Part shown: piece by piece, positions 2,204 to 33,982 of the stretch
Layout: each line of letters begins with the position of its first letter
Position numbering within the stretch: the stretch's first letter is position 1
Assembly: GCA_050951545.1 (NCBI GenBank)
Contig: JBMNJG010000013.1
Span: forward strand, 32,001-96,000
Origin: Limnochordia bacterium
Lineage (GTDB): Bacteria > Bacillota > Limnochordia > DTU080
Reading direction: 5' to 3'
Length of the DNA stretch: 64,000 nt
Notes under the pieces: generated by a model
The model's input: the letters and a program-made list of their open reading frames with translations, nothing else
What the model was told of the DNA's origin: nothing
Database searches by the model: none
Program-made: the position numbers and the translations under genes

Positions 2204-2435
2204 TTATGCTGTAGCTGAGATGCGGGTACGGCGTCACCAGCGTTCGTTTCGGGAACGTGTCTTGGGGGCCTACCGACGCCAGCGTGCGTTCTGTAGGTTG
2301 CGACACGACGAGCTACTGGATGCTGCTCATGTCGTGCCTGATGCCCATGGCGAGGGCGAGCCCATCGTGCAAAATGGTCTGGCCTCGTGTAGCCTTCACC
2401 ACAGAGCTTTCGATAGGGATTCTATGGAAGTCACG
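2204..2435 (+). pseudogene. HNH endonuclease fragment, diverged copy of 20371..20602
   Basis: Colinear 232-bp nucleotide similarity; HQRSFRERVL, LDAAH, NGL.C..HH; the first Zn-ligand Cys is changed to Arg; no N-terminus. Confidence 0.8.
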
Positions 2436-2651
2436 TGCCATGCGGAATTCTGTGCGGCAGTGCAGTGTGTAGGGCCTTACAGTCTAGCGAAAGCCATTTC
2501 GCATCGGGGGCGGGCCGCCTTTGCTGGGGCGGCCCGTTCCAAATCGAGTCCACACTGGTGGGCTTACCTCGCGCCTCTGAGTGGTACTCTGCTAGCATGG
2601 CATCGCCTATACCTTGGACATCGTCAATAATCGACTTCGGCACGGACGCGC

Positions 2652-2806
2652 CTCATGAACCATTCGCTAAAGAAGGCCGGAAGATCTGTACGTCTGCTCG
2701 CTGAGATGATCAACCGATCCCCTCTTTTCTCACGTTCGCCTCTTCTGGAAGGAAAACGGATAGTGGCTCCTAAGATTCTACCAGGTAATCGTCGGGAGAG
2801 GATACT
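2652..2806 (-). pseudogene. 5' fragment and upstream region of a DUF1848 gene, copy of 50462..50616
   Basis: IISASRRTDLPAFFSEWF is the DUF1848 N-terminus; 23 mismatches in 155 bp versus the intact copy by manual alignment. Confidence 0.8.
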
Positions 2807-3751
2807 ATGCGTCTTCAGGATTTGCACACCCACAGCAGCTATTCCGACGGGAAAAACGACGTGGGCCTCATGGTGTTGGCCGCCGACGTCTACGGTCTAG
2901 ACACCATCGCCATCACGGACCACTACAGTGACCGATATGCCTTCAACATCACTGACTTGGTCCGCGACTGCGAAGCAGCGCGAGAGTGGGCGAACTGCGA
3001 CGTCATGGTTGGTGTAGAGGCCGTGATCACCAGTATCGCGGGCCATGTCTCTGTTACTGATGAGGTATTACCGCACCTGGATCTCGTGCTATGCGAACTA
3101 GGCCCGCAGGTCGTGGAACCCGTGATGACTCTTCCCGTGGAACGTCGGGCGGAGAGTCTTACCCGGGCTATGGTCAATGCGTGTCGCCGTAACCCGTGCA
3201 TACGCATCCTGGCCCATCCCCTCAATATGGCCGCGATTGCGGGCGTCGATCTCAATCAGTTCAGCGAACCCCTCCTGGATGAGTTGGCCACCACATGCAT
3301 CGAGACGGGCGTGGCGTTTGAGGTCATGAGCGACCAGTGGTGGTGGTTTCGCCATCAGCCCATCGATGCCGTCACGGGCAAGTACGCCCGCATCGTCTCC
3401 TACATGGCGTCTAAGGGTGTCGAGTTCACTCTCGGAAGCGACGCCCATAGCCATCAAGGCGTGGGTAACTTCACCTGGGCCCGCCGCGTGCTGTCGTTGA
3501 CAGAGGTGAGCGAGGAACAGATTGCGTACATAGACAGGGGAAGTAGCATGTCTTTGAAAAACATACATAAGACGTCGCCGCGATGTGCCACTTGTTTCTT
3601 GTGGCTGGGTTCCCAGCGCGAGGTGCGTCGGGGAATGCCGAGCATCATCCAATTTGAGGACAACGAACGGGCTACCTGTCGACAGTCCGGCTTGACTAGG
3701 GCCGCTTGGCACGGGGGAGGATGTAGGGACTGGAAACCCTGGATCCGCTAG
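2807..3751 (+). CDS. PHP-domain phosphoesterase with a Cys-rich C-terminal extension
   Basis: DLHTHSSYSDG, ITDH, GVEA, LAHP and GSDAH PHP motifs. Confidence 0.85.
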   Translation: MRLQDLHTHSSYSDGKNDVGLMVLAADVYGLDTIAITDHYSDRYAFNITDLVRDCEAAREWANCDVMVGVEAVITSIAGHVSVTDEVLPHLDLVLCELGPQVVEPVMTLPVERRAESLTRAMVNACRRNPCIRILAHPLNMAAIAGVDLNQFSEPLLDELATTCIETGVAFEVMSDQWWWFRHQPIDAVTGKYARIVSYMASKGVEFTLGSDAHSHQGVGNFTWARRVLSLTEVSEEQIAYIDRGSSMSLKNIHKTSPRCATCFLWLGSQREVRRGMPSIIQFEDNERATCRQSGLTRAAWHGGGCRDWKPWIR

Positions 3752-9001: not shown

Positions 9002-9532
9002 ATGACTAGTCGCGATCTGCTTGACTTCCTGGTTCAGCGGACAGCAAAGGCGAAGCCTGAAGCTCATCGGATTCTTTCGCAACACGAGCGTTCTGCATCA
9101 CGTGTAGTCATCCGCGAGGGCTTGCTACGTCGCTTGTCTGGTTTACCCATCGACGTTCAGGACCGTTACTCCGAAGCCGTGAGTTGCCTTGAAAGGGGCC
9201 TTCGCCGTGGGGCAATCGTCATGGCATGGGCAGGGCACTTCCATGTGTATGGAGGAGCTGCCTCCAAACCCATGAGAAATGGGGTTCGGGTGGCCAGGCC
9301 GAAGTGGTTTTTCCGTGATGCGACAGACAAGGAGAACGTGGTTGAAGCACAGATCCTGGATGTCGGCAAGGACGTGGGCTTCATCGGGAAACCCCGCCTG
9401 AAGGTGCTCCAAGGACGATTGGCTACTCGGAACCAGTGCGCTCGCTCAATTTCCCAGTGTCAGTCAATGAACACCGCAATCGGGCATATTTACGATATGC
9501 TTCGTCAGACGATCAGCTATTTCTCGCCCTAA
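9002..9532 (+). CDS. HEPN-like protein (possibly inactivated), probable gene cassette
   Basis: 'EAVSCLERGLRRGAIVMAW' plus RNQCAR (Rx4H position holds Arg instead of His); its stop TAA sits inside CCCTAAC. Confidence 0.55.
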   Translation: MTSRDLLDFLVQRTAKAKPEAHRILSQHERSASRVVIREGLLRRLSGLPIDVQDRYSEAVSCLERGLRRGAIVMAWAGHFHVYGGAASKPMRNGVRVARPKWFFRDATDKENVVEAQILDVGKDVGFIGKPRLKVLQGRLATRNQCARSISQCQSMNTAIGHIYDMLRQTISYFSP

Positions 9533-9556
9533 CGGGCGTACCAGCGGGCGCTAGGC
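9527..9556 (+). other. Collapsed attC remnant
   Basis: CCCTAAC-gggcgt-ACCAGCG followed almost at once by GCTAGGC; the central part is missing. Confidence 0.45.
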
Positions 9557-9786
9557 GGGGTGAGAGACTGCGGGGCTACAACCGAGAGACCTTCTCTCAG
9601 ATGCTTGCCTCAGAGGGGATTGCGAAACCCCGGATGACCGAGATGAACCGCCCCCAGGTGTTTGCATGGAGGTTGCGCTCTGCGCGAGGGCGAGTGCGAG
9701 CGGGAAAATCGCACGCCGGCGACTGTGCGGGGGGCGCCGGGCAACCGACGTTCCTACCGCGGGGAAGGACCAAAAGGAGCGAAACG

Positions 9787-10659
9787 GTGAACAAGAATCC
9801 GTCACTCGAAGGACCTCAGTTCGTCCAGTTCTTTGGACCTGTTCTTGACGCCTTGAGGGAGCTGGGTGGCTCAGCCCGTCCCGTGGAAGTATGTACCAAG
9901 GTTGCTGCAAACCTGGAGTTGTCGGATCAGGCCCAGGAGGAGCTCTTGGATAGCGGTTCGTCGCGGTTTGCCAATCGCGTGGCGTGGGCTCGCTTTTACC
10001 TTGCTAAAGCCGGTTTCATTGACTCCTCGCGTCGCGGTGTCTGGACACTGACAGATCAAGGGCGCACGGCAGTGCTCTCACATTCTGAGTCGGTGGCCGT
10101 TTTCAGAGAGATCCACGGCCAATTTCAGACGTCTCGTCGTAACACCGAACCAGACGTGGTCGACGAGACGTCGTCTCCGGACGATGAGTCAGAGGCTTTA
10201 GATAGCTATCGTAGAGTCGTGTCACGCACGCTTCAAGAGCTACCTCCAGACGGCTTTGAACGGTTCTGTCAACGTCTTCTGCGCGAAGCTGGATTTCAAG
10301 ACGTTGCCGTTACGGGTCGCAGTGGTGATGGAGGCATCGACGGAATCGGTATGTTGCAGGTAAACGCACTAGTAAGTTTCAAGGTCTTATTTCAGTGTAA
10401 GCGGTATCAGGGTTCCGTAGGGGCCGCCCAGGTCCGTGACTTTCGCGGTGCGATGCAAGGGCGTGCAGACAAGGGTATCATCATTACTACCGGGTCTTTC
10501 ACGTCGGAGGCTCGCAAGGAAGCCGTGCGGGACGGAGTTCCCCCAATTGAGCTCGTGGACGGGGAGAAGCTCATCACCATGCTTGAGGACCTTGAGCTTG
10601 GTTTGGCGCCAATCCGAGCGTTCCGAGTCGACGATGACTTCTTTGACGATTACCGCTGA
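9787..10659 (+). CDS. mrr: Mrr-family type IV restriction endonuclease
   Basis: Mrr_N wHTH (NRVAWARFYL..AG) and Mrr_cat (DGGIDG, QCKRY, GIIITTG.FT); GTG at 9787 follows AAAGGAG. Confidence 0.9.
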   Translation: MNKNPSLEGPQFVQFFGPVLDALRELGGSARPVEVCTKVAANLELSDQAQEELLDSGSSRFANRVAWARFYLAKAGFIDSSRRGVWTLTDQGRTAVLSHSESVAVFREIHGQFQTSRRNTEPDVVDETSSPDDESEALDSYRRVVSRTLQELPPDGFERFCQRLLREAGFQDVAVTGRSGDGGIDGIGMLQVNALVSFKVLFQCKRYQGSVGAAQVRDFRGAMQGRADKGIIITTGSFTSEARKEAVRDGVPPIELVDGEKLITMLEDLELGLAPIRAFRVDDDFFDDYR

Positions 10660-10934: not shown

Positions 10935-12362
10935 GTGAACCACCAGATGTGTGAGGCATTCCCGCTTAGAATCACACTCGAAGAAGCTGGTTTGTCAGAG
11001 CCGCGGCTTGCTCGGTTTTTCGCAACAATCAACGAGCAGCACCTGGACTTGAACAGCCTGCTCCTGCTAAAAGGCGGGAAGCTGGCATTCGAGTATCATG
11101 CGTATCCGTACGACCCGGATACTCCCAGAGCGTCTTTCTCCGCGATCAAAGCGTTCATCGCGCTTGCTGTAGGAATCACTGTTGACAGAGGGCGTCTGGA
11201 CGTTGATGAACGCATTCTGGACATCTTCTCAGAATATCATGTCGCCAATCCCAGCACGAATTTGCAGCGGATGACTGTCAGACACCTCTTAACGTCATCG
11301 ACTGGACACGATGGTCCGGCACTGCAATGGGTCCCGGACGATTGCGACAATATTGTCACGTGGTTTCTTCAGCAGGATGTTCCGTTTCCACCGGGAGAGC
11401 GGTGCCGCTATGAAAACCCATGCTTTCTCATCCTGTCATATATCCTCATTAGGCGCAATGCATGCAGTGTGCAACAACTGCTTGAGGACGAGCTTTTCCA
11501 CAAAATAGGTATGGGGAAGGTCGGATGGATCACGCGCAGGCCCGATGACATTATTCTCGGGATTCAGGCCACCCCACGCGACTATGCGCGTATTGGTGTG
11601 TTGCTCCAGCATTACGGGTACTGGGGCGCTGAGCAAGTTGTTTCGGAACGCTGGCTGAGGGCGGCTACATCCAAACAGGTTCTCTATCCGGAAGGACGTC
11701 GGGCAAGTTGGTATGGCTATCTGCTGTGGTGTGACAATATTGGCGGCTTTTCCGCCGTGGGCGACCATGGACAGCGGATTCTCGTGCTGCCTGAACGTGA
11801 TCTGGTGATAGTCATGACAGGAACCGAACCGCAACACGGGAAGCTGTATGACGCGTTTGTCACGTTTCTCATCGACAAAGAGGAGCATGATTTGGCGAAT
11901 GGTGCCCTACTAGACGAAGTGCTGACAGCAAATCGGCCCATGTCGCACACACCAACGCTGCCGAAAACAGCTCACGACATCAGTGGTGTCGTGTACAGGT
12001 TTTCTCCGCAGGAATACTCGTCACCCTCTGAATTGCAGTTCCATTTCGATGGCTCAGATACATTCCTGCTTGACATTGGCAATGCTGAAGGGCGGCACGA
12101 TCGTCTGAGAGGGGCATTGAACGGCACATTCCATATTGGAACAGTCTCCCCCGAAAACGTCTTCGGTTTTCAGCAGAATAACTATACGGAAACCGAGGTC
12201 GCCGTACGGGGCCAGTGGACATCCGACTCGGTGTTCGAATGTGAGATTCGACCGTTGCGGTACGGGATGGCGTATCACTATGTGCTGACCGTGCATGATG
12301 GCGGTGTGCAACTCTATTGCAGAATGAACCGGCGCACAGAAACGCTGAATTCGCTAGAATAA
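10935..12362 (+). CDS. Serine hydrolase, beta-lactamase fold (class C/NylB-like)
   Basis: SAIK (SxxK), HLLT, YEN (YxN), YGYLLW. Confidence 0.85.
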   Translation: MNHQMCEAFPLRITLEEAGLSEPRLARFFATINEQHLDLNSLLLLKGGKLAFEYHAYPYDPDTPRASFSAIKAFIALAVGITVDRGRLDVDERILDIFSEYHVANPSTNLQRMTVRHLLTSSTGHDGPALQWVPDDCDNIVTWFLQQDVPFPPGERCRYENPCFLILSYILIRRNACSVQQLLEDELFHKIGMGKVGWITRRPDDIILGIQATPRDYARIGVLLQHYGYWGAEQVVSERWLRAATSKQVLYPEGRRASWYGYLLWCDNIGGFSAVGDHGQRILVLPERDLVIVMTGTEPQHGKLYDAFVTFLIDKEEHDLANGALLDEVLTANRPMSHTPTLPKTAHDISGVVYRFSPQEYSSPSELQFHFDGSDTFLLDIGNAEGRHDRLRGALNGTFHIGTVSPENVFGFQQNNYTETEVAVRGQWTSDSVFECEIRPLRYGMAYHYVLTVHDGGVQLYCRMNRRTETLNSLE

Positions 12363-12503: not shown

Positions 12504-12641
12504 ATCGAGATAGACTCGCAAAGCCTCATCGACAGACCCGTATTGCTTGAGGTTCCTTCCGAGATCCTGCCAAGGCTTCAAGTGTCGACACAGTGATTTC
12601 GGGTTAGTTGGGGACTGCTGCGGACCTGTCTCACGGCCGCG
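12504..12641 (+). pseudogene. Degraded copy of the 5' end of the NTase cassette gene (7830..7971)
   Basis: Shared ATCGAGATAGACTCGCAAAG...GAGATCCTGCCAAGGCTTCAAG...GGGACTGCTGCGG, with indels. Confidence 0.75.
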
Positions 12642-13827
12642 CATCCATCTGTTTCAATGCCTGGATCAGGCTGCTGTAGAGGCTCATGAAACGTGACTCG
12701 TCCAGCGGCTCCACATTGTTCCAAGTGGCGCTAACTGCGAAGAACCTGCCAGACTGGCTCACCAACCATGTCGTCAGGTTGAGCACCCCGGGCTCCGAAC
12801 CGCCTTTGAATGCTATGCGTTGCCAATCGGCAGGATACGCAACACCGGGGTTGATGCTCATGAGCGGCAAATCCTGAACATGGGCCATCAGGTTTACCAA
12901 CTCGCCGACAGAGAAGAACCACTCGACATCCAAGGCCAGAGGGCCGCCGGAGAAGGCGGAGGCATCAGGCAACGGCGCCGCCTGGATGGCGGGTAGCATC
13001 TCTCTTTTGGCTTGCGCATCACTTTGACGGTAAGCGTCGAGTAGGGACTCATTCACAGGATTCTTCAGCGCAAATGCTTCTCGGGTGCTCAAAAAAGGCC
13101 GATTTACCTGGGTATACGCTTCGATGGTTTCTCGACCGACCACATCGATCAGCATGTCGGTCGCTGTGTTGTCACTCATGGATATCATCAATGACGCCAC
13201 TGTCTGAATGGTTAAGGGCGTGCCGATCGGCCAGGCTTGCAGGATGCCGGTAGGCAGGCTGACGTGCTTCTCGGATAGCCTCGCAACTGTGTCCCAGGCT
13301 AGTGCTCCGGAGTTGATCTTGTCTTTCAACGCAGCCAGAATCGCCAGCTTGAACGTGGAGCCTACCGCCAATCGAGCCTCCGGAGCGATAGCGCCCATCA
13401 CGCCAGTGTCGGAGGCGACCAGAACGCTGACTTGGCCCGGCAACTCGGAGAAGCCCGCCAGAGCCTCTTCGAGGTCGGCAACCTTAGTTTGCGGCAAGCC
13501 GAGCCAAAAGCTGGCAATCCGGGCGTTTTCATCCAACACAATCTGCGCAGGAGCAGTGCCTCGGCTGAATACCAGCGTGTACGCTGGCGCTTTTCCTTCG
13601 GCGCACACATAGTCGCCTAATGTGCCCCGATACTGCTGCACAATCACTTCAACTTGAGATACAGGCACCTGGGCAAGAAACGTTGGCGCAAACCAATTGG
13701 CGTCAATGGCGTCCGCCTCGAAAACTTGAGCCAGTCGGTCCTCAGGGGTCACGGCGGCGCCCAGGGCTTGACCGCTGCACATCAGCAATACCGTCAGCAC
13801 TGTAAGTGTGATAGTACGATAGGTCAT
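12631..13827 (-). CDS. Secreted serine hydrolase, class A beta-lactamase-like fold with an N-terminal extra domain
   Basis: Signal peptide; GSTFK (SxxK), SDNTATD, KGG. Confidence 0.85.
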   Translation of the reverse strand: MTYRTITLTVLTVLLMCSGQALGAAVTPEDRLAQVFEADAIDANWFAPTFLAQVPVSQVEVIVQQYRGTLGDYVCAEGKAPAYTLVFSRGTAPAQIVLDENARIASFWLGLPQTKVADLEEALAGFSELPGQVSVLVASDTGVMGAIAPEARLAVGSTFKLAILAALKDKINSGALAWDTVARLSEKHVSLPTGILQAWPIGTPLTIQTVASLMISMSDNTATDMLIDVVGRETIEAYTQVNRPFLSTREAFALKNPVNESLLDAYRQSDAQAKREMLPAIQAAPLPDASAFSGGPLALDVEWFFSVGELVNLMAHVQDLPLMSINPGVAYPADWQRIAFKGGSEPGVLNLTTWLVSQSGRFFAVSATWNNVEPLDESRFMSLYSSLIQALKQMDARP

Positions 13828-14264
13828 GGTTACCATCTCTCCACTCGGGTTGAGTAGTATCACTACGCATTTACATTTAGAGACACAGCCAGCGATTCCT
13901 TTGCTGTGGTGGGCTACATCCTGGCTGAGTGATCGCGCCAGCTCGGAGCAGGGAGCCATGTGTTCGCGGCTGAAGAAGACAACTGAATTGTGGTTATGTG
14001 TCAGGATTTCAACTCATCGACATGCAGCGTCAAAGCAGAGTTTGCTGCTTGAGGATCTTCAATCCACTCCCAGCTGGAAATGGCGTCTGAAGACGACGTG
14101 ACAGCTCCATGCGTTGGAGCCGCAGTTGCCCGCTGGTATAGACCGGCAAGCTTGCGTGGGAGGATGCGTCTCGTAGATCATGGGATGACTTTGAGTTTGC
14201 ATTCCCAGAGGGTGAATCGAACCGGGCAGCCCAGGTTCGAGGTAGGAGGGCGATAGATAAGCTG

Positions 14265-15268: not shown

Positions 15269-16804
15269 ATGACGAGGTGTCTCAGTTGGCGGCTGCTCTT
15301 GGCTGTTGTGCTCGTTGGTGCCCTTGGTGCCGTGGTAGCGATGGTGTCCGTTACATGGGGCGCGCAGGCGGAGCCCTTGGATAGGTCTGCTGTCGATCGA
15401 TTCGTAGCGGGACAGATGGGCAAGCATCGCATCCCTGGCGTCGTGCTGGCCGTGTTCGAGAACGGCGAGGTGACGTACACGAAAGGCTATGGTACGGCCG
15501 GGCGCGGGCAGCCGATGACGCCCGATACCCCGATGATCATCGGCTCGACGACGAAGTCGTTTACAGCCGTGGCCATTCTACAACTTGTCGAACGTAGCCT
15601 GGTTGATCTCGACGCGTCCGTGCGTACCTACCTGCCGTGGTTCCGGGTTGCTGATTCGGTCGCTTCGGCCAGTGTTACTGTTCGTCACCTGCTCAATCAC
15701 ACAAGCGGGCTCTCCGAACTCGGCTATAACCGGGTGCTGAGTCCGAATACGACGCTTGAGCAAGGGGTGCGTGATCTCCGTTTCGCTCGACTGACCGCGC
15801 CTGTGGGGACGAAGTTTCAGTACTTTAACCCCAACTACGCCACCCTGGCGCTGATCATTGAGACGGTCAGCGGGCAGTCCTATGGAGACTACGTGACTGA
15901 ACACATATTCGCCCCTCTAGGGATGACACACAGCTATGTCGGCAGAGACGACGCGCCAAGGGCTGGGTTAGCCCAAGGGCACAGCAAGCTGTTCGGTTTC
16001 CCGGTTGCCCGCAATCCGATCTTCCGCGCGTACATGGTAGGCGCAAACTACATCGTCTCCACGGCAGGCGATCTGAGCCGTCTCCTGATCGCCATCGACA
16101 ACGGTGGGCTCTACCGAGGAGCCAGAATCCTGTCCCCGGCTAGCGTGGCCCTAATGACGTCGCCCCCTGTGCAGGCCCTGAACAGCCCCTACGGAATGGG
16201 TTGGGTGGTTGGCTCACACCGCGGGGAGAGGACGGGCGGTCATGGAGGTGCGGACGAGGTGTTCACGTGCCAAGCGGTGCTGTTCGCCGATCAGCATCGC
16301 GGTTATGTCGTGTTGATGAACCAGCAGCACCTCCTCGACGGGGCCATCGCCTCCAGGCAGCTCGAGGCCGGCATGCTTGATCTGCTTCTTGCTCGACAAC
16401 CCGATGCGGGCGGCATTTCCGTGCGGTTGGTTGGTGCGGTCATCTTGGTGGTTTTCCTCGTTGCGCTGGCAACGACGTTCCGTTCTTTGGCGGGCCTGCG
16501 TGGGTGGCGAAACCAGGTCAAGACTCTCACGGCCGGGCAGATCGTATCACGAATTGTGCCACACCTGCTGATCCCGGCGCTCATTGCGTTCGTGTTGTAC
16601 CGCTACCTCGGGACACTGCTTCTGGGGGAGCCGAGAGCCTGGAATTTCCGTTGTGTGGGAGCGTACTTCATGCCAGACATTGCACTTCTGATGCTTCTGG
16701 CGATCGTACCTGACCTGTTGCAGGGCGTGTACATGGCCGCAACGGCGATAGTCGATCGCATTGTCAGACGATCGGTCCGATCGTGGTATCGGAAGATGGG
16801 ATAG
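15269..16804 (+). CDS. Membrane-anchored serine hydrolase (beta-lactamase/D-peptidase fold, signal peptide and C-terminal TM helices)
   Basis: GSTTK, HLLNHTSG, YFN, HGG; three hydrophobic C-terminal segments. Confidence 0.9.
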   Translation: MTRCLSWRLLLAVVLVGALGAVVAMVSVTWGAQAEPLDRSAVDRFVAGQMGKHRIPGVVLAVFENGEVTYTKGYGTAGRGQPMTPDTPMIIGSTTKSFTAVAILQLVERSLVDLDASVRTYLPWFRVADSVASASVTVRHLLNHTSGLSELGYNRVLSPNTTLEQGVRDLRFARLTAPVGTKFQYFNPNYATLALIIETVSGQSYGDYVTEHIFAPLGMTHSYVGRDDAPRAGLAQGHSKLFGFPVARNPIFRAYMVGANYIVSTAGDLSRLLIAIDNGGLYRGARILSPASVALMTSPPVQALNSPYGMGWVVGSHRGERTGGHGGADEVFTCQAVLFADQHRGYVVLMNQQHLLDGAIASRQLEAGMLDLLLARQPDAGGISVRLVGAVILVVFLVALATTFRSLAGLRGWRNQVKTLTAGQIVSRIVPHLLIPALIAFVLYRYLGTLLLGEPRAWNFRCVGAYFMPDIALLMLLAIVPDLLQGVYMAATAIVDRIVRRSVRSWYRKMG

Positions 16805-16819
16805 GAGGGTCACCTAGCC

Positions 16820-19741
16820 ATGCACAAGAATCTGCGGCAACTTTTGGCCTTACTTGTCTTATTCGCATCATGCATAGCGCTAACCACGTCTACCGCAGCC
16901 GCCCCAGGGCTCACTATCCCCGAGCTCCGCCAAGAGGGTGACAGACTGTGGGCCGGCCAAGGATACCTCATGGAGCGAGACGGCATCAAGATCCTGCACG
17001 TGAAGGGTTCACCCATGGAGATGGGCATGCAGCATGCTCTCTTGCTCGGCGACGACGCAGATAGGCTTAGAGCCTATGTCGATCCGACTATGCAGGAGCA
17101 CAAAGGCTTGGATGCCTTGGCCTGGCGATTCCGTGATTTCTACATGACTGCCAAGCTGTCACCGACATTCGTGCGCAACCTGCCTTCACGGTACATAGAA
17201 GAGATGCAGGGGTTTGTCTATGCTGCTTCGGGCGGTCTGGAGACGGATGTGGAGCCTGTTCTGACCGGAAACGTCTTCCAGGAGCTAGCCCTGTTGATGT
17301 GCACGTCACTAGCCGCTTATGGTGCCGCCACGATTGACGGTCAACTCTACCACGCCCGCAATCTCGATAACAACCTGCCGTTGGAAATGGTACAGAGCGC
17401 GCTTGTGGCTATAGTGGAACCGGAGGGCCGCCTGCCCTACATCACGCTCTCCTATCCGGCCAACTTCGGCGTGATGCACGCCGTAAACAGTGCGGGCATC
17501 ACTGTGAGCATGAACTACTCAGTCAGCACTGATGCCACTATAGACGGCATGCCGTTCGTTTTCATGCTACGGGAGATTGCCGAAACGGCAACCACGTTGG
17601 ACGAAGCTGTACAGATCATCAAGGAAACTCCGCGGACGGTCGGGCTAAACATTGTGGTGGGCGACGCCAAAATACCACAGGCGGTGGTGGTGGAGGTTTC
17701 GGCTAACCGCTATGCAGTGCGACCGGCCACGGACGGCTTCGTCTCGGCTACCAATCGATATGCCACGGCGAGTATGCTGCCGTACCAGCTCCCTGGCTGG
17801 CACAGCTCGGCCCTGCGAGATGAGCGTCTGGCAGAGCTGGCTCAAGGTCAGCACGGCTCGTTTTCGCCGACAGTGATGGCTGAGGTGTTGCGAGACAAGT
17901 TTGCGCCTGGCACGCTTCCGTATTCGAAACTGCTGTTTGGAATCGAGAACGTAGCTACCATGGCCTCAGTGATCTTCGATGGCGCACGCCAGGTGATGTG
18001 GGTAGGGGTGCAAGATGCATCTGCGCCGGCATCAGATCGCCCGATGCTGGCCTTTAGCTTACCAGCGGCGTTGGCGGGTGCCGACCCGCGGCAGTCTTCC
18101 CTGGACATTCCGTTGCAGAACCCCGACGGTGAACACCGGCTGGACTGGCTCGAGTTACACGAAGCAGAGCGTTTGATGCTGGCGGGCGATTATCCAGAGG
18201 CCCAGCAGCGGCTCCACCCGTTACTCGACAAGTACCCCACGTCCGAGTACATACTGCTCCTCACAGGTTGGACGCACATGCGCCTGGGGGACCACGACAC
18301 TGCAGCCCATCATTTTCGGCTCATTACCGAGCTGGAGGAGGTGGCCAACGCTCGTTACCTGCAGGAGGCCACCTATCAGCTGGGCATCCTCGCCGATAGT
18401 AGGGGTCAGCGGCAGGAAGCGCTGAAGTGGTACAGAGCTTCGCTGGATGTAAACGTACCTGATGTGACTGGCCATGAGCACATCCGCAAGCAGGCGCAGA
18501 AGGGGTTGCTCAAGCCGCTGAGACCGTCGGAATCACTACTGGCTTCGTGGTGGCGAGCGCTCGTGTTCCTTGGCGAACCGGAGGCGTATCCGGCGCCCGG
18601 CGGCGAGGTAGTCTCTATCTCGGTTCTGGGAGTCCACCGCACCGATCCGACGTGGATTACCAGATGGTTGGGCGTAGACATCGGCGACAGAGTCACCGGC
18701 GATAGTGTCAGAGCTATGCGACGGTCGCTCCTGTTGCTCGGCGCCTATGAGGATGCCGTAGTAGCCACAGTGCCTCTGGGTGAGGAGAGAGTGCATCTGG
18801 TCATCCGCATTCAGGAGGGTTTCGGTCTGTACAAGGAGCCAGTAGGGTTTATCATAGATACGGCCATCGGTCTGTCCCAGCAGACGCTAGCTCTGCGATA
18901 TGACAACCTGGCCGGAAGGGCGATCAACGTTGGTGGCGCATACAGCTGGGGTCCATCTCGCCAACGCTTAGCCTACGTCGAGGCTCCTCTGAGCTTGGCT
19001 GGAGCGAACCAGATCAGGCTGCAGGCGCAGACGCACCTGGTTTCCTACGAACCTGAATACGGAATGTATGCTGGTACGAGGGAGACGGTACATCGGCAGG
19101 AGTTCCAGGGAGCGTTGAGCCGGGTACTCAGCCCGACGTGGATGCTGACAGTGCGAGGTCGCTTGTTTGATAGCCGTACAGAGACGCTACAGCCCACGGC
19201 TGGTTATACGCCAACAAACGGACGCTTCGTGTTGGCCACTAGCACCCTAACACGCGCTAGCGGGAACAGAGCGAGGGCGAGCACTTTCACCATCACCCCC
19301 GGTCTGTTGGTTGCCCCGACAACTGAGCACCAGGCACTTCCACGCCTGTCGGCAGAGCTGGATGTGAAAAGTGCGGTCGGCCCTCGCACACAGCTGGCCG
19401 TGTTCGGCGACGTCGGCTGGATGGATGAAGAGACCCCGCTGGTGAACCAGTACTGGCTGGGCGGTGGCCACACTCTGCGCGGCTACGCAGCGGTGATCCC
19501 GACTACCACGTTTGCCCATGCCACGCTGGAGTGGCGTCGGTTCATGCAGGATAATCTGTACGCGGCGGCGTTCGCCGATGTCGGTGTTTTCCACACAGCC
19601 AGTGGAGCTCAGTCTTTGTGGACTCCTGGAGTGTCACTGCGCTACCAAACGCCAGTGGGTCCGGAAGTACGCTTCACGGCCGCACACGCTCCCGAGCAGC
19701 AAAGCTGGCGATGCGATTTTGGTTTCGCTGCAGCCTGGTAG
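16820..19741 (+). CDS. C45 (Ntn) autoproteolytic hydrolase-TPR-POTRA-Omp85 beta-barrel fusion
   Basis: Signal peptide; M|CTS...HARNLD (C45); TPR-like helices; POTRA-like (SISVLGVHRT...LVIRIQE); barrel motifs DNLAG, LGG...LRGY, FADVG, TPVGP; terminal W. Confidence 0.85.
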   Translation: MHKNLRQLLALLVLFASCIALTTSTAAAPGLTIPELRQEGDRLWAGQGYLMERDGIKILHVKGSPMEMGMQHALLLGDDADRLRAYVDPTMQEHKGLDALAWRFRDFYMTAKLSPTFVRNLPSRYIEEMQGFVYAASGGLETDVEPVLTGNVFQELALLMCTSLAAYGAATIDGQLYHARNLDNNLPLEMVQSALVAIVEPEGRLPYITLSYPANFGVMHAVNSAGITVSMNYSVSTDATIDGMPFVFMLREIAETATTLDEAVQIIKETPRTVGLNIVVGDAKIPQAVVVEVSANRYAVRPATDGFVSATNRYATASMLPYQLPGWHSSALRDERLAELAQGQHGSFSPTVMAEVLRDKFAPGTLPYSKLLFGIENVATMASVIFDGARQVMWVGVQDASAPASDRPMLAFSLPAALAGADPRQSSLDIPLQNPDGEHRLDWLELHEAERLMLAGDYPEAQQRLHPLLDKYPTSEYILLLTGWTHMRLGDHDTAAHHFRLITELEEVANARYLQEATYQLGILADSRGQRQEALKWYRASLDVNVPDVTGHEHIRKQAQKGLLKPLRPSESLLASWWRALVFLGEPEAYPAPGGEVVSISVLGVHRTDPTWITRWLGVDIGDRVTGDSVRAMRRSLLLLGAYEDAVVATVPLGEERVHLVIRIQEGFGLYKEPVGFIIDTAIGLSQQTLALRYDNLAGRAINVGGAYSWGPSRQRLAYVEAPLSLAGANQIRLQAQTHLVSYEPEYGMYAGTRETVHRQEFQGALSRVLSPTWMLTVRGRLFDSRTETLQPTAGYTPTNGRFVLATSTLTRASGNRARASTFTITPGLLVAPTTEHQALPRLSAELDVKSAVGPRTQLAVFGDVGWMDEETPLVNQYWLGGGHTLRGYAAVIPTTTFAHATLEWRRFMQDNLYAAAFADVGVFHTASGAQSLWTPGVSLRYQTPVGPEVRFTAAHAPEQQSWRCDFGFAAAW

Positions 19742-19846: not shown

Positions 19847-20779
19847 ATGGCCGAGATCGTGGAAGATGCGCGTGTTCGCTCTGCAGCGTTTTCGTGGTTG
19901 GCCAAGCAGACAGAGAAGCATGGCGATGTGCTTCCACGCAGTCTGCTTGCGACTGGCTTCGAACTCGACGGGCAGCGCGTTCACCTAGTTGGTCCACAAG
20001 GCATCTTCAAACCGAAGGTGCTGGATGAGTTGCCACTATCGATCACGACTGCTCCTGGTGGCCGCTATGATGATGCATTCGATGCCAACGGGCTCTTGCG
20101 GTACCGCTATCGCGGTTCTGATCCGGATCATCCTGACAACCGCCGCCTTCGGTTGGCATGGCGCCGTGGTGTGCCGCTGATCTACTTTCATGGCATCGTT
20201 CCTGGGAAGTACTTAGCCGCTTGGCCTGTGTACATAGTTGGCGACGACCCCTCGGGTCTATATGTTACGGTTGTACTTGAGCAACCGAACTACTTCGACA
20301 TAGCTGACGGGGCTGCAGACTTGGCTGGGGCTTTGGGTGGAGCTGACTTGGCCAGGGAAGCTGGTCGCAGTTACGCTACAGCTCAGATGCGGGTACGACT
20401 CCATCAGCGTTCGTTTCGGGAACGTGTCCTGGAGGCGTATCGACGACAATGCGCGTTCTGCAGATTTCGACACGAGGAGCTGCTGGATGCTGCTCACATC
20501 GTGCCTGATGCCCACAGCGAAGGCGAGCCGATTGTACAGAATGGTTTGGCTCTGTGCAGTCTTCACCACAGAGCCTTCGACAGGCATTTCATAGGAGTCA
20601 CGCCAGATTACCGCATTGAGGTGCGGCCAGACATTCTGGAGGAGAGCGACGGCCCAACGTTAGTTCACGGTTTTCAGGTGCTCCACGGGAAGAGGATCCT
20701 ACTGCCGAGAGCTTCGAAGCTATGGCCTGATCGCGATCTCTTGTCGAAGCGGCATGAGGAGTTTCGGGCGGCCGTGTAG
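19847..20779 (+). CDS. HNH endonuclease, putative modification-dependent (type IV) restriction enzyme
   Basis: HQRSFRERVL, CAFC, DAAHI, NGLALCSLHHRAFD; N-terminal recognition domain. Confidence 0.85.
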   Translation: MAEIVEDARVRSAAFSWLAKQTEKHGDVLPRSLLATGFELDGQRVHLVGPQGIFKPKVLDELPLSITTAPGGRYDDAFDANGLLRYRYRGSDPDHPDNRRLRLAWRRGVPLIYFHGIVPGKYLAAWPVYIVGDDPSGLYVTVVLEQPNYFDIADGAADLAGALGGADLAREAGRSYATAQMRVRLHQRSFRERVLEAYRRQCAFCRFRHEELLDAAHIVPDAHSEGEPIVQNGLALCSLHHRAFDRHFIGVTPDYRIEVRPDILEESDGPTLVHGFQVLHGKRILLPRASKLWPDRDLLSKRHEEFRAAV

Positions 20780-20797: not shown

Positions 20798-23083
20798 CTA
20801 TCTGACGATTACCTCATACCAGAGCGTGCGATAGTCAGGGCCGATGGCAAAGGCACTGCCTGTGTCGGTGTTACGCACTGGCACCTCTGTCATCCGCTCC
20901 CCATTCTCACGGAGAGCATAGACCTGTACCCGATCGGCAGAGGTCGTCAGCTCTACATCCGCTGGAATACCTTCAACCCGAACAGGTGACGCCCCCCAGG
21001 AACCATGAATAGTCGCCCGCGTACCTGTCAGTGGAGTTAGCAGCATCCCTGTGTTCTCGCTGTAGCCTGTGGCCGTGAGCAAGGCCCTGAACGGACCAGC
21101 GAAGCTCTCACCGTCATGCAATGTGAGCGTGATGGTAGACCACCCATCAAGTCGGGTGTTACCCGGCTCAATCGTCACCTCATGCAGGTCGAAGCATCTG
21201 CCAGCTCCGTAACCGACGACTGCCTTGGAGCGAGAGGTGTCAATGGTAACCACACCTCGATCGGTCTGCGTACGATCCCACATCAGCTCCTCCGTATCCG
21301 TCACATGGCGGAGGCCAGAAGAGCTGGGGATCTTCGCTGTGACACCGGGAGTGATCGCGTCAAGCGTCCGGGTCATGCGATACCGCAGGGGGAGTGTCGT
21401 CGGGACACCCCTGGACCAGGCGTTGTAGTTGGTACCCATGTTGGTTTTCCGTTCGGCCATCAGGCTTTTCTGCGTAGCATCGGTTAAGGGAATCTGCACG
21501 ACATCTACCCCCGGCTGCACATCACCACGCAGTAGCATAGCTGTCGCCGCGGGCAGAGTCGCTTGCTTTACCGTATGACCTTTGATATTGAAGTAGTTCG
21601 TGATCCGCATGGGCCAGTAATCCCGCGACAGACTCCAGTCGAAGACGGTGATGCCGTCCCAGTCTTGGAAAGCTCCATATGCACAGGCCAGCACAAAGGC
21701 CTCGGAACCGTAGCTGTTAGGCGCCGGATGATTGTACTCCGACAGAGTGAAAGGTTTGCCCTCGACACGCAAGCGTGCTGCCATGGACAGCGGTCCGCCT
21801 CCATCGTGGTTGACCAGTGAGCGGTTTTCCACATAGAAGGAGCTCCACTGGTTGGAGGAAGAGGGAGTGGTAGTCTGCGGATGAGCCCAGTACATGTGGG
21901 CGTCGACGTAGTCGAGCTGTGCTTGGATACTGGGCGGACTAAGAGTGATCTGGGTCCCGGCTACTAGGTTCTTGGCACCCAGCTCTTCCTTAATAAACTG
22001 GTACATGCCGGTGAAGAAGGCCTGCTCCGTATCCCAGATGAAGTCAACATAATCACTTTGACAAATTGGCGTGCGTTGGCCTGCTTCAGTCCAGATGAGG
22101 CGCCTTACTCCAATCTCCAGACTCTCGCCTTCGGGCAGTCCGACTAAGCCTCTAGCTGGTGCGGAGCTGTCACCCCAGGCTGCCCGCAGTGCTGCGGTTG
22201 TGCCGTATTTCCTGGCCAGCCAAGCGGTCCATTGCTGTTCGAGCGGTGCCACGAGATCATCGGGTGTCTTGTCAAGCTCCCCACGGTTCCAGGTGTAGAA
22301 CAGGCCGTCTTCGTTATTCAGCTCAACCTGGACTAGAGAAGGCTCTTCCGCGTAGCGATGGCCAGTGTACGGGTTGCGATGGGTAAGCAACTCCCTGATG
22401 TGCTCCCTATGCAGTACGGCTACATCGGGGTGGAATATGTCTAGACCGCGGTCAGAACCTGGCCGTTTGTCGGACAGAGGGAACCCTTCCTGCGGCTGCA
22501 CGGTGCGAGATGTCTTCAGGTTGAAATTGACATAGATCCCGTTCTTCTTGAGTTGGGCAACGAAGTAGTCGAGGTTGTCTAGTTGGTCAGGGTCGATGCG
22601 GCGGGGAAACACTCCGGCCTGGAAAAGGCCATCAGGAGCTTCATAGCGCTCGATATTGTGAAAACGTACCAGGTTGATACCGAAACGGGCCAACTGAAGG
22701 GCCAGTTTCTCGGCATCGGCGTGGGACGGAAACGCCGCGTTATAGCAGAAATTGACGCCGAAAAAGCGGATGCGCTTGCCGTCGCCAGTGTAGAAACTCC
22801 CCTCATGCGCTGTGATGAAGCCTGCTTTACCAGCTGGCTTGTCGAGCAGGTGGGAAAAGTTAGTTACGTTGTCGGGGAAGAGATCGCCCTGAGAGACTGT
22901 GAAGGGAAACAACGGTGCGAAGCCCTGCTCGGCAGCATTCACCGGACCAGCGATGCCCAGCAGAGCAGCAACAAACGTACAGATGAGCCATGCCCCTCCA
23001 ATCAGGGTCGGCAGCCGTGCGTCGTCGCGATGGATGATCGTAGTGGGGGTTGGGCGCCCATGCGCCGTCGTTGTGTCAGCCAT
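20798..23083 (-). CDS. Secreted GH5-like (clan GH-A) glycoside hydrolase
   Basis: RFFGVN, GINLVRFH, NPYTG, ELNNE (acid/base), H.YW.HP, SEYN (nucleophile). Confidence 0.8.
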   Translation of the reverse strand: MADTTTAHGRPTPTTIIHRDDARLPTLIGGAWLICTFVAALLGIAGPVNAAEQGFAPLFPFTVSQGDLFPDNVTNFSHLLDKPAGKAGFITAHEGSFYTGDGKRIRFFGVNFCYNAAFPSHADAEKLALQLARFGINLVRFHNIERYEAPDGLFQAGVFPRRIDPDQLDNLDYFVAQLKKNGIYVNFNLKTSRTVQPQEGFPLSDKRPGSDRGLDIFHPDVAVLHREHIRELLTHRNPYTGHRYAEEPSLVQVELNNEDGLFYTWNRGELDKTPDDLVAPLEQQWTAWLARKYGTTAALRAAWGDSSAPARGLVGLPEGESLEIGVRRLIWTEAGQRTPICQSDYVDFIWDTEQAFFTGMYQFIKEELGAKNLVAGTQITLSPPSIQAQLDYVDAHMYWAHPQTTTPSSSNQWSSFYVENRSLVNHDGGGPLSMAARLRVEGKPFTLSEYNHPAPNSYGSEAFVLACAYGAFQDWDGITVFDWSLSRDYWPMRITNYFNIKGHTVKQATLPAATAMLLRGDVQPGVDVVQIPLTDATQKSLMAERKTNMGTNYNAWSRGVPTTLPLRYRMTRTLDAITPGVTAKIPSSSGLRHVTDTEELMWDRTQTDRGVVTIDTSRSKAVVGYGAGRCFDLHEVTIEPGNTRLDGWSTITLTLHDGESFAGPFRALLTATGYSENTGMLLTPLTGTRATIHGSWGASPVRVEGIPADVELTTSADRVQVYALRENGERMTEVPVRNTDTGSAFAIGPDYRTLWYEVIVR

Positions 23084-23115
23084 GGTGTAAGCTCCCTTCG
23101 CGCGTCTATGCCGAA

Positions 23116-23559
23116 TCACTGGTCTCGCTGCTGTTCCAGATATGCGTTAACATGTTGGGCGAATTCAACAAAATCGTCGAGTTGTTCCGTAAGTACGCGG
23201 TGCACCTCTCTCAGATCGACTGCGGTGTATTCGTGGACAAGGATGTTCCGAAAGCCTGCCATCGGCGCCATCCGTTCGGCGAATGCCTTGGGCAGAATAC
23301 CCAATGGGGCCAGGGCTGAGATATTGTCGCGATATCGATCGGGAACTGGGCCCCCGAGCGAGGCTACACAGTGCGACGCCACATCCAGCACTGACTGAAC
23401 GCAGAGTTGCAGGCCGTGCTGGACCGCCCAGTACACTTTTGGACTGGCCGCCAGTTCATCCAGCGTCATTCCTCGGTACTCCCTGAGCACCTGCACGGCA
23501 TCAATCAGGTACGTCAAGCGCCGCTCAATCACGCCGCGGTCAGGCATGGCCCCGGTCAT
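23116..23559 (-). CDS. hepT: HepT-like HEPN ribonuclease toxin (DUF86)
   Basis: FRNILVHEY (Rx4HxY); overlaps the mntA stop. Confidence 0.9.
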   Translation of the reverse strand: MTGAMPDRGVIERRLTYLIDAVQVLREYRGMTLDELAASPKVYWAVQHGLQLCVQSVLDVASHCVASLGGPVPDRYRDNISALAPLGILPKAFAERMAPMAGFRNILVHEYTAVDLREVHRVLTEQLDDFVEFAQHVNAYLEQQRDQ

Positions 23560-24029
23560 GGCTGTTCACCTCGTCTCGGCCGCAGGGCGGCCAGTTGTCG
23601 TTGCAGACGGGCGGCTTGAAGGTTGCGCAGTGGTCGGGTATCCTCGTACTCTTGGAAGGCCCTAATGGTGAACTCCGCAATCACTTCCATATTGACAGCG
23701 TAGAGAACATGCCCGTCGCGAACCACGCGATGCAAAAGCAGCGGTGGTGCGCCGTTCAGGATGACCACGTCAACGTCGGGGCGTTCCCATATGCTCATCA
23801 TGTCCAAAACGAGTTGTGGGCGGTTTACTCGGGCTTCCACCCCGCCTCGGGTGAGAAGAACGCCCAGGTCGAGGTCGCTATCAGGACGTGCCTCGCCCCG
23901 GGCCAGCGAACCAAAAAGGAATACTGCCGCGATCTCAGGCCGTTGAGAGAAGTACCTTCTCAGTTGTGTCATTTTTCCGGTGGAAAACACGGCCTCGGGT
24001 GCACCTCCTAGCCCTCGCCTCTTCGGCAT
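23556..24029 (-). CDS. mntA: MntA adenylyltransferase antitoxin (type VII TA)
   Basis: FGSLARG...SDLDL, VDVVILN.APP. Confidence 0.9.
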   Translation of the reverse strand: MPKRRGLGGAPEAVFSTGKMTQLRRYFSQRPEIAAVFLFGSLARGEARPDSDLDLGVLLTRGGVEARVNRPQLVLDMMSIWERPDVDVVILNGAPPLLLHRVVRDGHVLYAVNMEVIAEFTIRAFQEYEDTRPLRNLQAARLQRQLAALRPRRGEQP

Positions 24030-24889: not shown

Positions 24890-25996
24890 CTACTCGCTGG
24901 CGGCATCACTGGCGGGCGCCCAGCCACCCTTAGCCGTCTCGCGGTAGAAGCGGCTCCTCAGATCGAGGTACCTGAGGAGTTTCTTGTTAAGGTCGCTTCG
25001 CAACGGCAGCAGTTGGCCAGCCTTGAACTTCATGGTGAGCCAGGACAGGTCCTTGGCATGGATCACAACCAACGTGACGTTGTTCTTCTCACACAATTCA
25101 CGCTTGGTCTTGTCACGTTCCATCTGCTTGGCGACCACGTCAGCCGAGAACCGTTTGGTAGGGGTGTAGTGCTGTGGCCCGTTAAACTCAAAAGCCACCG
25201 CCTCGAGGTCATAGTGGCGGTCGAGCTCCAGTAACATGCCAGTAGCCGGGTTGACTAGAAAACGGGGAGACGCGTTGTCTTTGTGGTCATCGGAGTCGAA
25301 AATAGCCGATAGGTATTCCTGCATCAAGGCCTGTCCGAAGAACTCAGCCTCGTCGAGTCGCTGCTGCGCCGCTAGCAGTTCATCCATGTACCTGCGGGCG
25401 ACCGGGTTGCAGAGGCTGAAGCAAATGGGAGCCTGCTTGTGCTCTTGCTGCATCTCCAGCCAGCCCAGCTTGGCCAGTTGTCGAGCAGCCCGCTTGACCG
25501 TCTTGGCACCTAGACTCATCATCCGAGCCACAGACGCATATGTGAACACGCCCTGCAAATTACGGTAATCCGGCGTGGCCTGCAGTGCACCATAGACCAC
25601 CTTGGCCTGAGCACTGACTTCGGTGGCGATGATCAGCTCAGTAGGCATGACCACTCTTGGCCCCGACAGCTCTTTTGCTGGGGCCTGGTTGACGCCTGTG
25701 GGCAGACTGTACCAGCCCTTAGTGGTTAGCTTTGCCGTAGCCTTGCGGACGGTGGGTCGGGACAAACCGGTACGAGCAGCCAGGCGAGTGGGCGATAGAC
25801 GAGCTCGCTCCCCCAACTCAGCGTCGAGTGTGAGGGCCAGCCAGACTACCTTATCCGTCGCTCTTAACTGGCTAGTGAGCAGCAACGAGATCGGCACGCG
25901 AACCTCTTCGATATCCAAGGGCGCCACCTCCAGCCAGAATGTCTGTTCGGGTCCCGAATACATGTTCGGCACACTCCGGTAGAGTTCCTCCATCAA
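24890..25996 (-). CDS. Tandem winged-HTH protein with a C-terminal Vsr/DUF559-like PD-(D/E)XK endonuclease
   Basis: Two homologous HTH modules; C-terminal FLVNPATG..LELD....AFEFNGPQHY...RDKTK; exact start uncertain. Confidence 0.8.
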   Translation of the reverse strand: MMEELYRSVPNMYSGPEQTFWLEVAPLDIEEVRVPISLLLTSQLRATDKVVWLALTLDAELGERARLSPTRLAARTGLSRPTVRKATAKLTTKGWYSLPTGVNQAPAKELSGPRVVMPTELIIATEVSAQAKVVYGALQATPDYRNLQGVFTYASVARMMSLGAKTVKRAARQLAKLGWLEMQQEHKQAPICFSLCNPVARRYMDELLAAQQRLDEAEFFGQALMQEYLSAIFDSDDHKDNASPRFLVNPATGMLLELDRHYDLEAVAFEFNGPQHYTPTKRFSADVVAKQMERDKTKRELCEKNNVTLVVIHAKDLSWLTMKFKAGQLLPLRSDLNKKLLRYLDLRSRFYRETAKGGWAPASDAASE

Positions 25997-33550: not shown

Positions 33551-33982
33551 TGAAGTGATCGAAACACCCATTACTGGTGGGTGGGGGTGCTGCGCTGCAC
33601 ACTATGGGCGCAGTGCCCTGTTTTGTGTCTTGAGGTAACGAGGTGAAGGTGTTCTGGGCGTTGTCGATGGTTACGGTACCCGAGCCATCGCCTACAATGC
33701 ACAATACCGCTTGAACCTAGAATACCGCCGTATGATGGCGACATGGCACGTGAGCTTCTTGGCTTTGACCGGATTGCGGAGGCGAAAACGAATCGGGGCA
33801 TGCTTGTTCGCTTGTCAAATAAGGGTTTCTTAGCTGGTCCCAGACGATGTCGATCTCTGTGCAATAGGGGGTGTCAGCGTGGATGTGCGAGGTAACCCAT
33901 AACCCAGTCTTCCCCGCGACGGCCGAAACCTTCAAGGGAAAACGGTCTATTGACAGAAGAAAGCTTCAGGGAGGCGGGCGTC

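Follow-up and report, generated by a model that had tools for sequence, protein, structure and literature searches.

Known C45-type enzymes are soluble, peroxisomal or lysosomal, and fusions of an enzyme to an Omp85 barrel are few. The closest described fusions are PlpD and FplA ('type Vd'), in which an N-terminal hydrolase with a Ser-Asp patatin domain, a linker, a single POTRA domain and a C-terminal Omp85 barrel of the 16-strand type form one chain. A 2014 survey of Omp85/TpsB architectures distinguishes, in its main text, ten subfamilies, including patatin-like, 'Metallo' and WD40 (PMC4104836). The patatin domain of PlpD has since been described by Hanson et al. 2024 (PMC11116518) as exclusively periplasmic, packed against the POTRA, dimeric and affecting phospholipid levels; the authors also consider it implausible that a folded domain would cross a closed Omp85 barrel. 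Here we describe a gene with a PlpD-like domain arrangement and a different enzyme, found in a 64,000-nt stretch of DNA from a Limnochordia bacterium (GCA_050951545.1, contig JBMNJG010000013.1, forward strand 32,001-96,000; this whole stretch is called the window). The gene is a single open reading frame (ORF) at 16820..19741 (+) in the ORF list of the window, with its stop codon at 19739-19741 (+). It encodes a protein of 973 amino acids (aa) in the order signal peptide, C45 N-terminal nucleophile (Ntn) hydrolase proenzyme, seven TPR-like helices, disordered linker, one POTRA and Omp85 barrel. The protein is a genuine member of the Omp85 superfamily, conserved and rare, whose passenger is undescribed; it is not a demonstrated secretion system, and we lean slightly towards reading its product as an outer-membrane-anchored, periplasm-facing cysteine Ntn amidohydrolase or acyltransferase.

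The same domain order had been given in a preliminary description of this DNA, and every motif quoted there was located in the protein: MCTS at residues 160-163, HARNLD at 178-183, LRGY at 886-889, FADVG at 918-922, TPVGP at 944-948 and a C-terminal aromatic residue, W973. The enzyme part matched the C45_proenzyme model NF040521 (residues 62-392, E-value 1.6e-49, 169 bits against a cut-off of 85) and Pfam AAT (PF03417; residues 175-397, E-value 5e-19, 69.2 bits against a cut-off of 23.2), and no patatin family was present among the 14 Pfam matches of the protein at E <= 1. An AlphaFold2 model built on 11 full-length relatives had a mean predicted local distance difference test score (pLDDT) of 86.3 and a predicted template modelling score (pTM) of 0.82, with pLDDT <50 only where the signal peptide ends (residues 21-29) and in the linker (571-588). 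Alignment by Foldseek and VIA-align placed model residues 56-421 on the precursor of isopenicillin-N acyltransferase (IAT; 2x1c_B) with a Z of 35.7 and a root-mean-square deviation of 3.0 over 328 residues, and this superposition identifies the Ntn alpha-beta-beta-alpha fold. The next nearest structures were the lipid amidases acid ceramidase (model residues 54-447, Z 31.5) and NAAA (residues 54-404, Z 31.4), together with PLBD2. Identity of the C45 part to its structural matches was just 15-20 %.

The catalytic site could be placed by alignment with NAAA. The alpha (pro) segment of the C45 part covers residues 29-160 (16904..17299, +), of which model residues 54/56 onward align with the IAT, NAAA and acid ceramidase precursors. 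It is followed by the beta-subunit, the catalytic Ntn-hydrolase core detected by NF040521 and Pfam AAT, at residues 161-424 (17300..18091, +), which includes R180-N-L-D183. The putative self-cleavage site lies between M160 and C161 of the sequence M-C-T-S (17297..17308, +). Cys161 was aligned with residue 1 of the mature NAAA beta-subunit (6dy3_B) when a single sequence was used. With a 14-sequence profile (E-value 3e-4) it again fell at residue 1 of the NAAA beta-subunit, with 'haRNLD' opposite 'hGRNLD' of NAAA, and in the structure alignment model residue 161 coincided with the first residue of the mature NAAA beta chains (124-131 by entry numbering). C161, R180, N181, L182 and D183 were invariant in three alignments (11 of 11, 14 of 14 and 18 of 18 sequences). 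The nucleophile Cys and the RNLD residues have known functional roles in NAAA and IAT, and Cys161 is predicted from these alignments to become the N-terminal nucleophile after self-cleavage, with an Arg/Asp partner motif. The C45 domain with a Cys self-cleavage site, as first proposed, is thus upheld by the NF040521 score, the NAAA alignment and the invariant C161. The protein resembles MEROPS C45/IAT (2x1c), NAAA and acid ceramidase in fold, in the Cys at the self-cleavage site and in R-N-L-D, but differs in that TPR, POTRA and a membrane barrel follow its beta-subunit in the same chain.

Seven model helices at residues 438-564 (18131..18511, +) form the TPR-like domain. All Pfam TPR models were below their cut-offs here, and consensus TPR proteins of the PDB matched the region (8bu0_A, E-value 7.5e-5). 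A flexible linker (residues 565-594; 18512..18601, +), in which the low pLDDT at 571-588 falls and which is the division point of the two-gene forms described below, leads to a single POTRA at residues 595-666 (18602..18817, +) with a beta-alpha-alpha-beta-beta order (strands 595-605, 643-654 and 657-666, helices 610-617 and 627-639). The Omp85-type beta-barrel occupies residues 667-973 (18818..19738, +) and contains the loop-6 motif LRGY (19475-19486), FADVG (19571-19585) and the terminal W973. Sequence models called both domains weakly: Pfam POTRA matched residues 598-667 with an E-value of 0.05, and was above cut-off in the relatives at loci L021 (34.5 bits) and L022 (25 bits), while Omp85 (PF01103) matched residues 863-948 with 24.5 bits, barely above the cut-off of 24. 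Structure comparison of the predicted model confirmed these calls. Residues 595-973 aligned with residues 190-577 of Pseudomonas aeruginosa TamA, comprising POTRA3 and the entire barrel (Z 26.9), and residues 668-973 aligned with the Escherichia coli TamA barrel (4n74, 264-575; 280 of 314 residues) and also superposed on the BamA barrel (423-810). Over the whole length, Z was 23-27 to the barrels of TamA, BamA and FhaC. The TPR-like helices, the PlpD-like module of one POTRA and an Omp85 barrel, and the barrel motifs named in the preliminary description therefore all hold.

Some features of the barrel are specific to the family or variable within it. Between the POTRA and the first long strand lies a family-specific junction, consisting of the motif EGFGLYKEPV and a helix at residues 674-686 (18815..18877, +), and the core of this motif, LYx[DE]P[VL], was kept in all 17 aligned members. 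The motif and the predicted helix occupy the place where Omp85 proteins normally have beta1. DSSP assigned 15 long strands to the model barrel, with isolated beta-bridges at 668 and 671 and the helix at the expected position of beta1-L1; a total of 16 strands is inferred from the full-length superposition, the DSSP count itself being 15. The model of the barrel partner in the split-form locus L029 showed the same DSSP pattern, with the helix at residues 117-129 (pLDDT 78.3). The loop-6 RG[FY] motif was present in eight of the 17 members, replaced by RSF in one and absent from eight, including all four Thermotogota members. The beta13 D-x-G motif was absent from four of the 17, and a C-terminal aromatic residue was found in 16. 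The protein is like BamA and TamA in that barrel and last POTRA superpose over their whole length and in having RGY, FxDxG and a terminal aromatic residue. It is unlike them in having one POTRA as opposed to three to five, in scoring far below the cut-offs of the BamA and TamA models, in the loss of loop 6 in 8/17 family members and in occurring in a host that has a separate, bona fide BamA beside TamB.

To establish whether the fusion is real, its occurrence in other genomes and in sequencing runs was considered. When one genome per species (185,579 in all) was scanned for the pattern, 28 loci were returned, which by ORF inspection comprised 16 fused loci (one of them, L017, cut by a contig end), six split loci, two that were frameshifted or cut (L036 and L037), three partial loci at contig ends (L015, L033 and L039) and one C45-TPR gene alone (L027). 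A word-indexed protein search returned eight proteins, including full-length relatives at 72, 56, 54 and 47 % identity. An exhaustive search of 1.84 billion representatives gave 2810 matches (E <= 0.001), of which almost all concerned the C45 part, and the best 150 of the 2810 included six clear full-length clusters (P0003 and P0010-P0014) and one divergent cluster (P0032). 'Solo' C45-TPR clusters (P0016, P0019 and P0023) also occur. Some match was present in 13 of 41 related genomes. Matches extending from C45 through the barrel, in one or two pieces, were found in G004, G005, G013 (twice), G037, G003, G024 and G030, the last of which is a closed one-contig genome. Its member, which starts at an internal signal peptide, matches the Omp85 model of Pfam in full. 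A homologue search with the barrel only (residues 590-973) returned just four close family members, and a protein atlas search with the window protein returned only TPR and C39 clusters (0.79-0.85). Automatic record names for members include 'BamA/TamA family outer membrane protein', 'C45 family autoproteolytic acyltransferase/hydrolase [Petrotogales bacterium]' and 'predicted choloylglycine hydrolase/TPR'.

Near-identical DNA was detected in 20 of the 24 listed sequencing runs, from 16 studies; ten runs were flagged as possible sources of this DNA, and no RNA run was among the listed runs with near-identical DNA. A contig from another study (X12, record 9) is gapless over 17373-18816, spanning C45, TPR, linker and POTRA, and no indels or joints were seen in the four sequencing runs compared. 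A chimeric or frameshift artefact was rejected on the basis of the fused loci in other assemblies, the closed-genome member and the contig bridging the junction, and the possibility of a singleton artefact, which the preliminary description had named as a risk, does not apply. At two loci the gene looks disrupted. At L036 (5914-8914) the family gene lies in overlapping ORFs of 288 and 715 aa, which is a frameshift or an assembly error. At L008 (genome G027; 1429-3249, -) a C45-TPR gene of 606 aa is followed by transposase-like ORFs in place of the barrel, and may be a truncation of the fused gene by an insertion element.

The six split loci (L028, L029, L030, L031, L032 and L038), from six genomes, consist of a C45-TPR gene adjoining a POTRA-barrel gene. 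The C45-TPR protein has 586-591 aa and its own signal peptide, and its C-terminus falls exactly in the linker. The downstream ORF, of 409-431 aa, also has its own signal peptide, followed by one POTRA and a barrel with a terminal F, and aligns colinearly, with 25-31 % identity, to residues 589-973 of the window protein. The intergenic gap is 16-23 nt in five of these loci, whereas in L032 the first downstream start codon lies 35 nt before the upstream stop, so that the ORFs overlap. In L029 the genes are at 608-2383 and 2400-3629, and the gap reads TAA-GGGAGG-N10-GTG, with GGGAGG as the ribosome-binding site. A quick tree of the C45-TPR parts (32 rows, being 18 + 14 proteins from homologue searches) placed the six split genes in one clade (Shimodaira-Hasegawa-like approximate likelihood ratio test support 99) and the fused genes in another, with the four Thermotogota-titled sequences nested within the latter (support 91). 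As the root of this tree is arbitrary, no direction is claimed between the split and fused forms. The 16 fused and six two-gene loci point to a functional coupling of enzyme and barrel.

The split forms are comparable with two-partner secretion (TPS; TpsA/TpsB, type Vb), with which they share adjacent genes, a barrel of the Omp85 superfamily and a signal peptide on each protein. However, the split barrel has one PF07244 POTRA together with PF01103, and the L029 partner had only these two matches in the Pfam scan, without ShlB (PF03865) or POTRA_2 (PF08479). The L029 C45-TPR protein had AAT and TPR Pfam matches only, and no TPS-type secretion domain. A 'cargo' without a TPS domain and a partner that is not TpsB favour an enzyme docked beneath the outer membrane.

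The genes of the host genome indicate that it has such a membrane. Its BamA (576 aa) has an Omp85 score of 178 bits and POTRA matches, TamB lies directly upstream of BamA, and LpxC is 11 kb further on in the same contig; a TpsB (L012) matches ShlB and POTRA_2. An outer membrane in the host, first deduced from the barrel, is therefore independently supported by BamA, TamB, LpxC and TpsB, and by its gene content the host appears to be an uncultured two-membraned Firmicute. The record titles of the carriers name metagenome-assembled genomes (MAGs) of Bacillota, Clostridia, Limnochordia or Peptococcaceae, and four MAGs of Thermotogaceae or Kosmotogaceae. One bin titled Chloroflexota contains two family copies, L025 and L035. 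L035 and L034, the latter from a Bacillota MAG, match the query with identical E-value, identity and range, so that mis-binning is suspected and the Chloroflexota assignment is likely a binning error.

From the domain identities, conserved catalytic residues, fold, conserved fusion and split forms found here, we infer the self-cleavage event, the periplasmic location, the role of the barrel as an anchor and the substrate as follows. The protein would be exported by Sec and its signal peptide removed after about residue 28. The preliminary description had claimed a Sec signal, and residues 1-28 (16820..16903, +) agree with this, having K3, R6, a hydrophobic core and the sequence AAA before P29; in the AlphaFold2 model they form a helix at 2-23 with the low pLDDT at 21-29. 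A lipoprotein reading of Cys18 (FASC) was rejected and no lipobox was read, because Cys18 is not conserved among relatives. The beta-barrel assembly machinery of the host would then insert the C-terminal Omp85-type barrel by way of its terminal aromatic beta-signal. The C45 domain would fold in the periplasm and cut its own chain between M160 and C161, exposing Cys161 as the N-terminal nucleophile. This cut would free just the N-terminal alpha piece of 14 kDa, and the catalytic beta-subunit would therefore stay tethered to the barrel, to which it is covalently joined through the TPR, the linker of about 30 residues and the POTRA. The alpha piece (29-160) would probably remain non-covalently bound, as in IAT and NAAA. 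Barrel and POTRA would serve mainly as an anchor and docking platform and not as a secretion pore, holding the enzyme at the inner face of the outer membrane.

To our knowledge, the POTRA is a domain only ever found in the periplasm. The position of the enzyme N-terminal to the POTRA, together with the precedent of the PlpD patatin domain, favours a periplasmic location by analogy, and tethering of an enzyme to the outer membrane is likely a logic shared with PlpD/FplA. The pTM of 0.82 over the whole chain of 973 aa suggests a defined packing, in which enzyme and TPR would be held in a fixed arrangement on POTRA and barrel. The absence of loop-6 RG[FY] from 8/17 members and of the beta13 D-x-G motif from 4/17 fits a barrel without the need to translocate.

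The first alternative to this anchored periplasmic enzyme is true type V secretion, in which barrel and POTRA would translocate an unfolded C45-TPR passenger to the surface, where it would fold, activate itself and act on external substrates; fused genes would then count as Vd-like and split genes as Vb-like. In its order of passenger, one POTRA and Omp85 barrel the protein matches the model first proposed for PlpD (PMC4104836), and fused and split gene forms both exist, as they do for Vd and Vb. LRGY, FADVG and the beta-signal are retained in the window's clade and in the split clade, the disordered linker of about 30 residues could span a pore, and the host also has a TpsB system. However, the founding example, PlpD, is now reported to be periplasmic and dimeric (PMC11116518), which makes the type Vd autotransporter mechanism itself doubtful. 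The passenger is a globular alpha-beta-beta-alpha enzyme with TPR and not a beta-helix, it has no TPS domain and its barrel is not of the ShlB type, and the loop-6 motif is missing from almost half of the members. The cut at C161 would release the alpha piece only and could therefore not shed the enzyme. We consider secretion unlikely. The analogy with PlpD in the preliminary description thus stands for the architecture and fails for the mechanism, and its proposal that the same export architecture carries the enzyme outward was not borne out, given the periplasmic PlpD passenger, a cleavage freeing only the alpha piece and the loss of loop 6.

Several points weigh against a periplasmic anchored enzyme. 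Its topology comes from sequence and from a predicted model, its self-cleavage is predicted, and its periplasmic location is carried over by analogy from PlpD, a protein for which it was demonstrated only in Pseudomonas and E. coli (PMC11116518). Both LRGY and FADVG are retained in the clade of the window protein, and a working Omp85 pore or gate is therefore possible in this clade. The linker is long enough for threading a barrel, and the split arrangement superficially resembles two-partner secretion. A stronger form of the secretion proposal would make the family a new branch of type V. Its passenger would be an Ntn enzyme that activates itself and is not a beta-helix, exported in deep-branching diderms by an Omp85 barrel that has a single POTRA and, where beta1-L1 normally lies, a helix; the fused genes would be Vd-like and the two-gene loci Vb-like. 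This we regard as quite improbable. If true, it would revive passenger translocation by barrels of the BamA/TamA type just as PlpD is being reassigned to the periplasm.

For an anchored periplasmic enzyme, the favoured substrate is an acyl group joined by an amide link to some envelope lipid, lipid A excepted; this guess is held tentatively and at well short of even. Hints leaning towards a lipid are the structural likeness to NAAA and acid ceramidase, the fusion partners of C45 domains and the lipid-enzyme neighbours of the family. Of the 24 long C45 relatives that were scanned, three carry fused neutral-ceramidase domains (P0084, P0098 and P0102), one carries MMPL (P0112) and eight carry alpha/beta-hydrolase or esterase domains, among them P0133, which also has an Omp85 barrel. 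Lipid-enzyme genes neighbour the family at four of 18 loci, with PlsC at L021, LPG_synthase_C at L022 and L026, and patatin and PLD at L032. Lipid A was rejected as a common substrate because LpxC was not found in any of the four Thermotogota-titled carrier genomes, the completeness of which is not given; LpxC was found in the split-form genome G045.

The gene neighbourhoods count against the lipid guess. Of 106 neighbour ORFs from 18 loci, 98 were scanned (five of L035 and three of L030 were left out as near-duplicates of L034 and L038), and no conserved operon was found around the family genes. As the neighbourhoods are not conserved, the substrate guess rests on weak guilt by association. 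The window neighbours also point to peptides or peptidoglycan rather than lipid, being three beta-lactamase/penicillin-binding-protein (PBP)-family genes upstream at 10935-12362 (+), 12631-13959 (-) and 15269-16804 (+). The product of the last of these has a hydrophobic tail at its C-terminus; the gene itself stops 15 nt short of the fusion gene, and its stop codon overlaps the Shine-Dalgarno sequence AGGAGG (16803..16808, +) read 11 nt 5' of the ATG. The enzyme could accordingly have the same anchored topology and trim amide bonds of peptides or peptidoglycan, such as stem peptides or envelope tethers. Besides the beta-lactamase/PBP-family genes, this proposal is favoured by S41 peptidases adjoining L028 and L036, by an L,D-transpeptidase near L038 and by the occurrence of the family in Limnochordia-type Bacillota and Thermotogota, two deep diderm lineages. 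Those neighbours are, however, not conserved even at L014, the 72 %-identical orthologue, and the nearest structural and fusion partners lean to lipid amidases, so that peptide trimming seems doubtful.

The only recurrent neighbours were a protein of about 203 aa in one clade and Rce1-like genes at three loci (near L018, L023 and L025). In this clade, ORFs of about 203-212 aa are found repeatedly on the downstream side of the fused gene, at L016 (9054-9662), L018 (9107-9721), L024 (8963-9571), L025 (10082-10690), L006 (4065-4703) and L037 (3018-3629). No Pfam match was obtained for the four that were scanned (L016, L018, L024 and L025), and the copies at L006 and L037 look membrane-embedded.

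The weakest alternative, an insertase or translocase of the Omp85 type that carries its own maturation enzyme, in which POTRA and barrel would handle a client protein or lipoprotein that the TPR binds and C45 cleaves or acylates in transit, is in keeping with TPR as a typical client-binding module of outer-membrane biogenesis factors, with a weak, sub-cut-off TPR_Slam match in one member (E-value 0.0037), with barrel portions that score best on the BamA (15/17) and TamA (8/17) models, though far below their cut-offs, and with the ability of IAT-type enzymes to transfer acyl groups, but no conserved client gene adjoins the family, loop 6 has decayed in half of it and there is one POTRA only, and we hold it to be very unlikely.

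Other genes of the window were noted in the region. An Mrr-type restriction endonuclease gene (9436-10659, +) and an HNH_2 endonuclease gene (19847-20779, +) flank it. Downstream, a 773-aa secreted-looking protein (20798-23119, -) had no Pfam family at E <= 0.001, its sole match being a weak one to Glyco_hydro_42 (E-value 0.003). An overlapping pair of toxin-antitoxin type, a HepT-like RNase and a nucleotidyltransferase (MNT), lies at 23116-24029 (-). A 368-aa protein with winged-helix matches is encoded at 24890-25996 (-) and a very long ORF of 1978 aa lies at 33950-39886 (+).

A second fusion of a C45 domain to an Omp85 barrel was found in P0133 (1013 aa), which contains C45, an alpha/beta-hydrolase domain and a canonical Omp85 barrel (PF01103, 157 bits), with no POTRA match at E <= 1e-4. 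Its C45 part is 26 % identical to that of the window protein (E-value 2e-32), but where the window protein has the TPR, P0133 has another hydrolase domain. As the two barrels are alike only around loop 6, P0133 is probably an independent fusion. The main text of the 2014 survey does not contain the words C45, AAT, TPR, peptidase or hydrolase, although a rare cluster of this kind could be in its supplements (PMC4104836). Full-text literature searches found no paper combining Omp85 with Ntn and POTRA, PF03417 with PF01103, or peptidase C45 with outer membrane, and a broader search listed nothing relevant. This agrees with the view taken at the outset that no Omp85 subfamily with a C45 passenger had been described. 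Against PlpD/FplA, the family differs in its passenger (a C45 cysteine Ntn-hydrolase with TPR versus a Ser-Asp patatin domain), in the LYx[DE]P motif and helix at the POTRA-barrel junction, in its natural two-gene forms and in its hosts, which are diderm Bacillota and Thermotogota.

The roles of enzyme-Omp85 fusions have been in flux since PlpD moved from 'secreted' to 'periplasmic, lipid homeostasis'. To these fusions the family adds a chemically different passenger, a predicted self-cleaving cysteine amidase or acyltransferase with TPR, and it puts them in diderm Firmicutes and in Thermotogota, two groups with little-understood outer membranes. The pair of fused and split forms lets secretion and docking by an Omp85 partner be tested cleanly against each other, and Cys-dependent self-cleavage would by itself report the place and time of passenger folding. 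Should the substrate indeed be a lipid, the family would point to a new, lipopolysaccharide-independent activity that remodels the lipids of the outer membrane.

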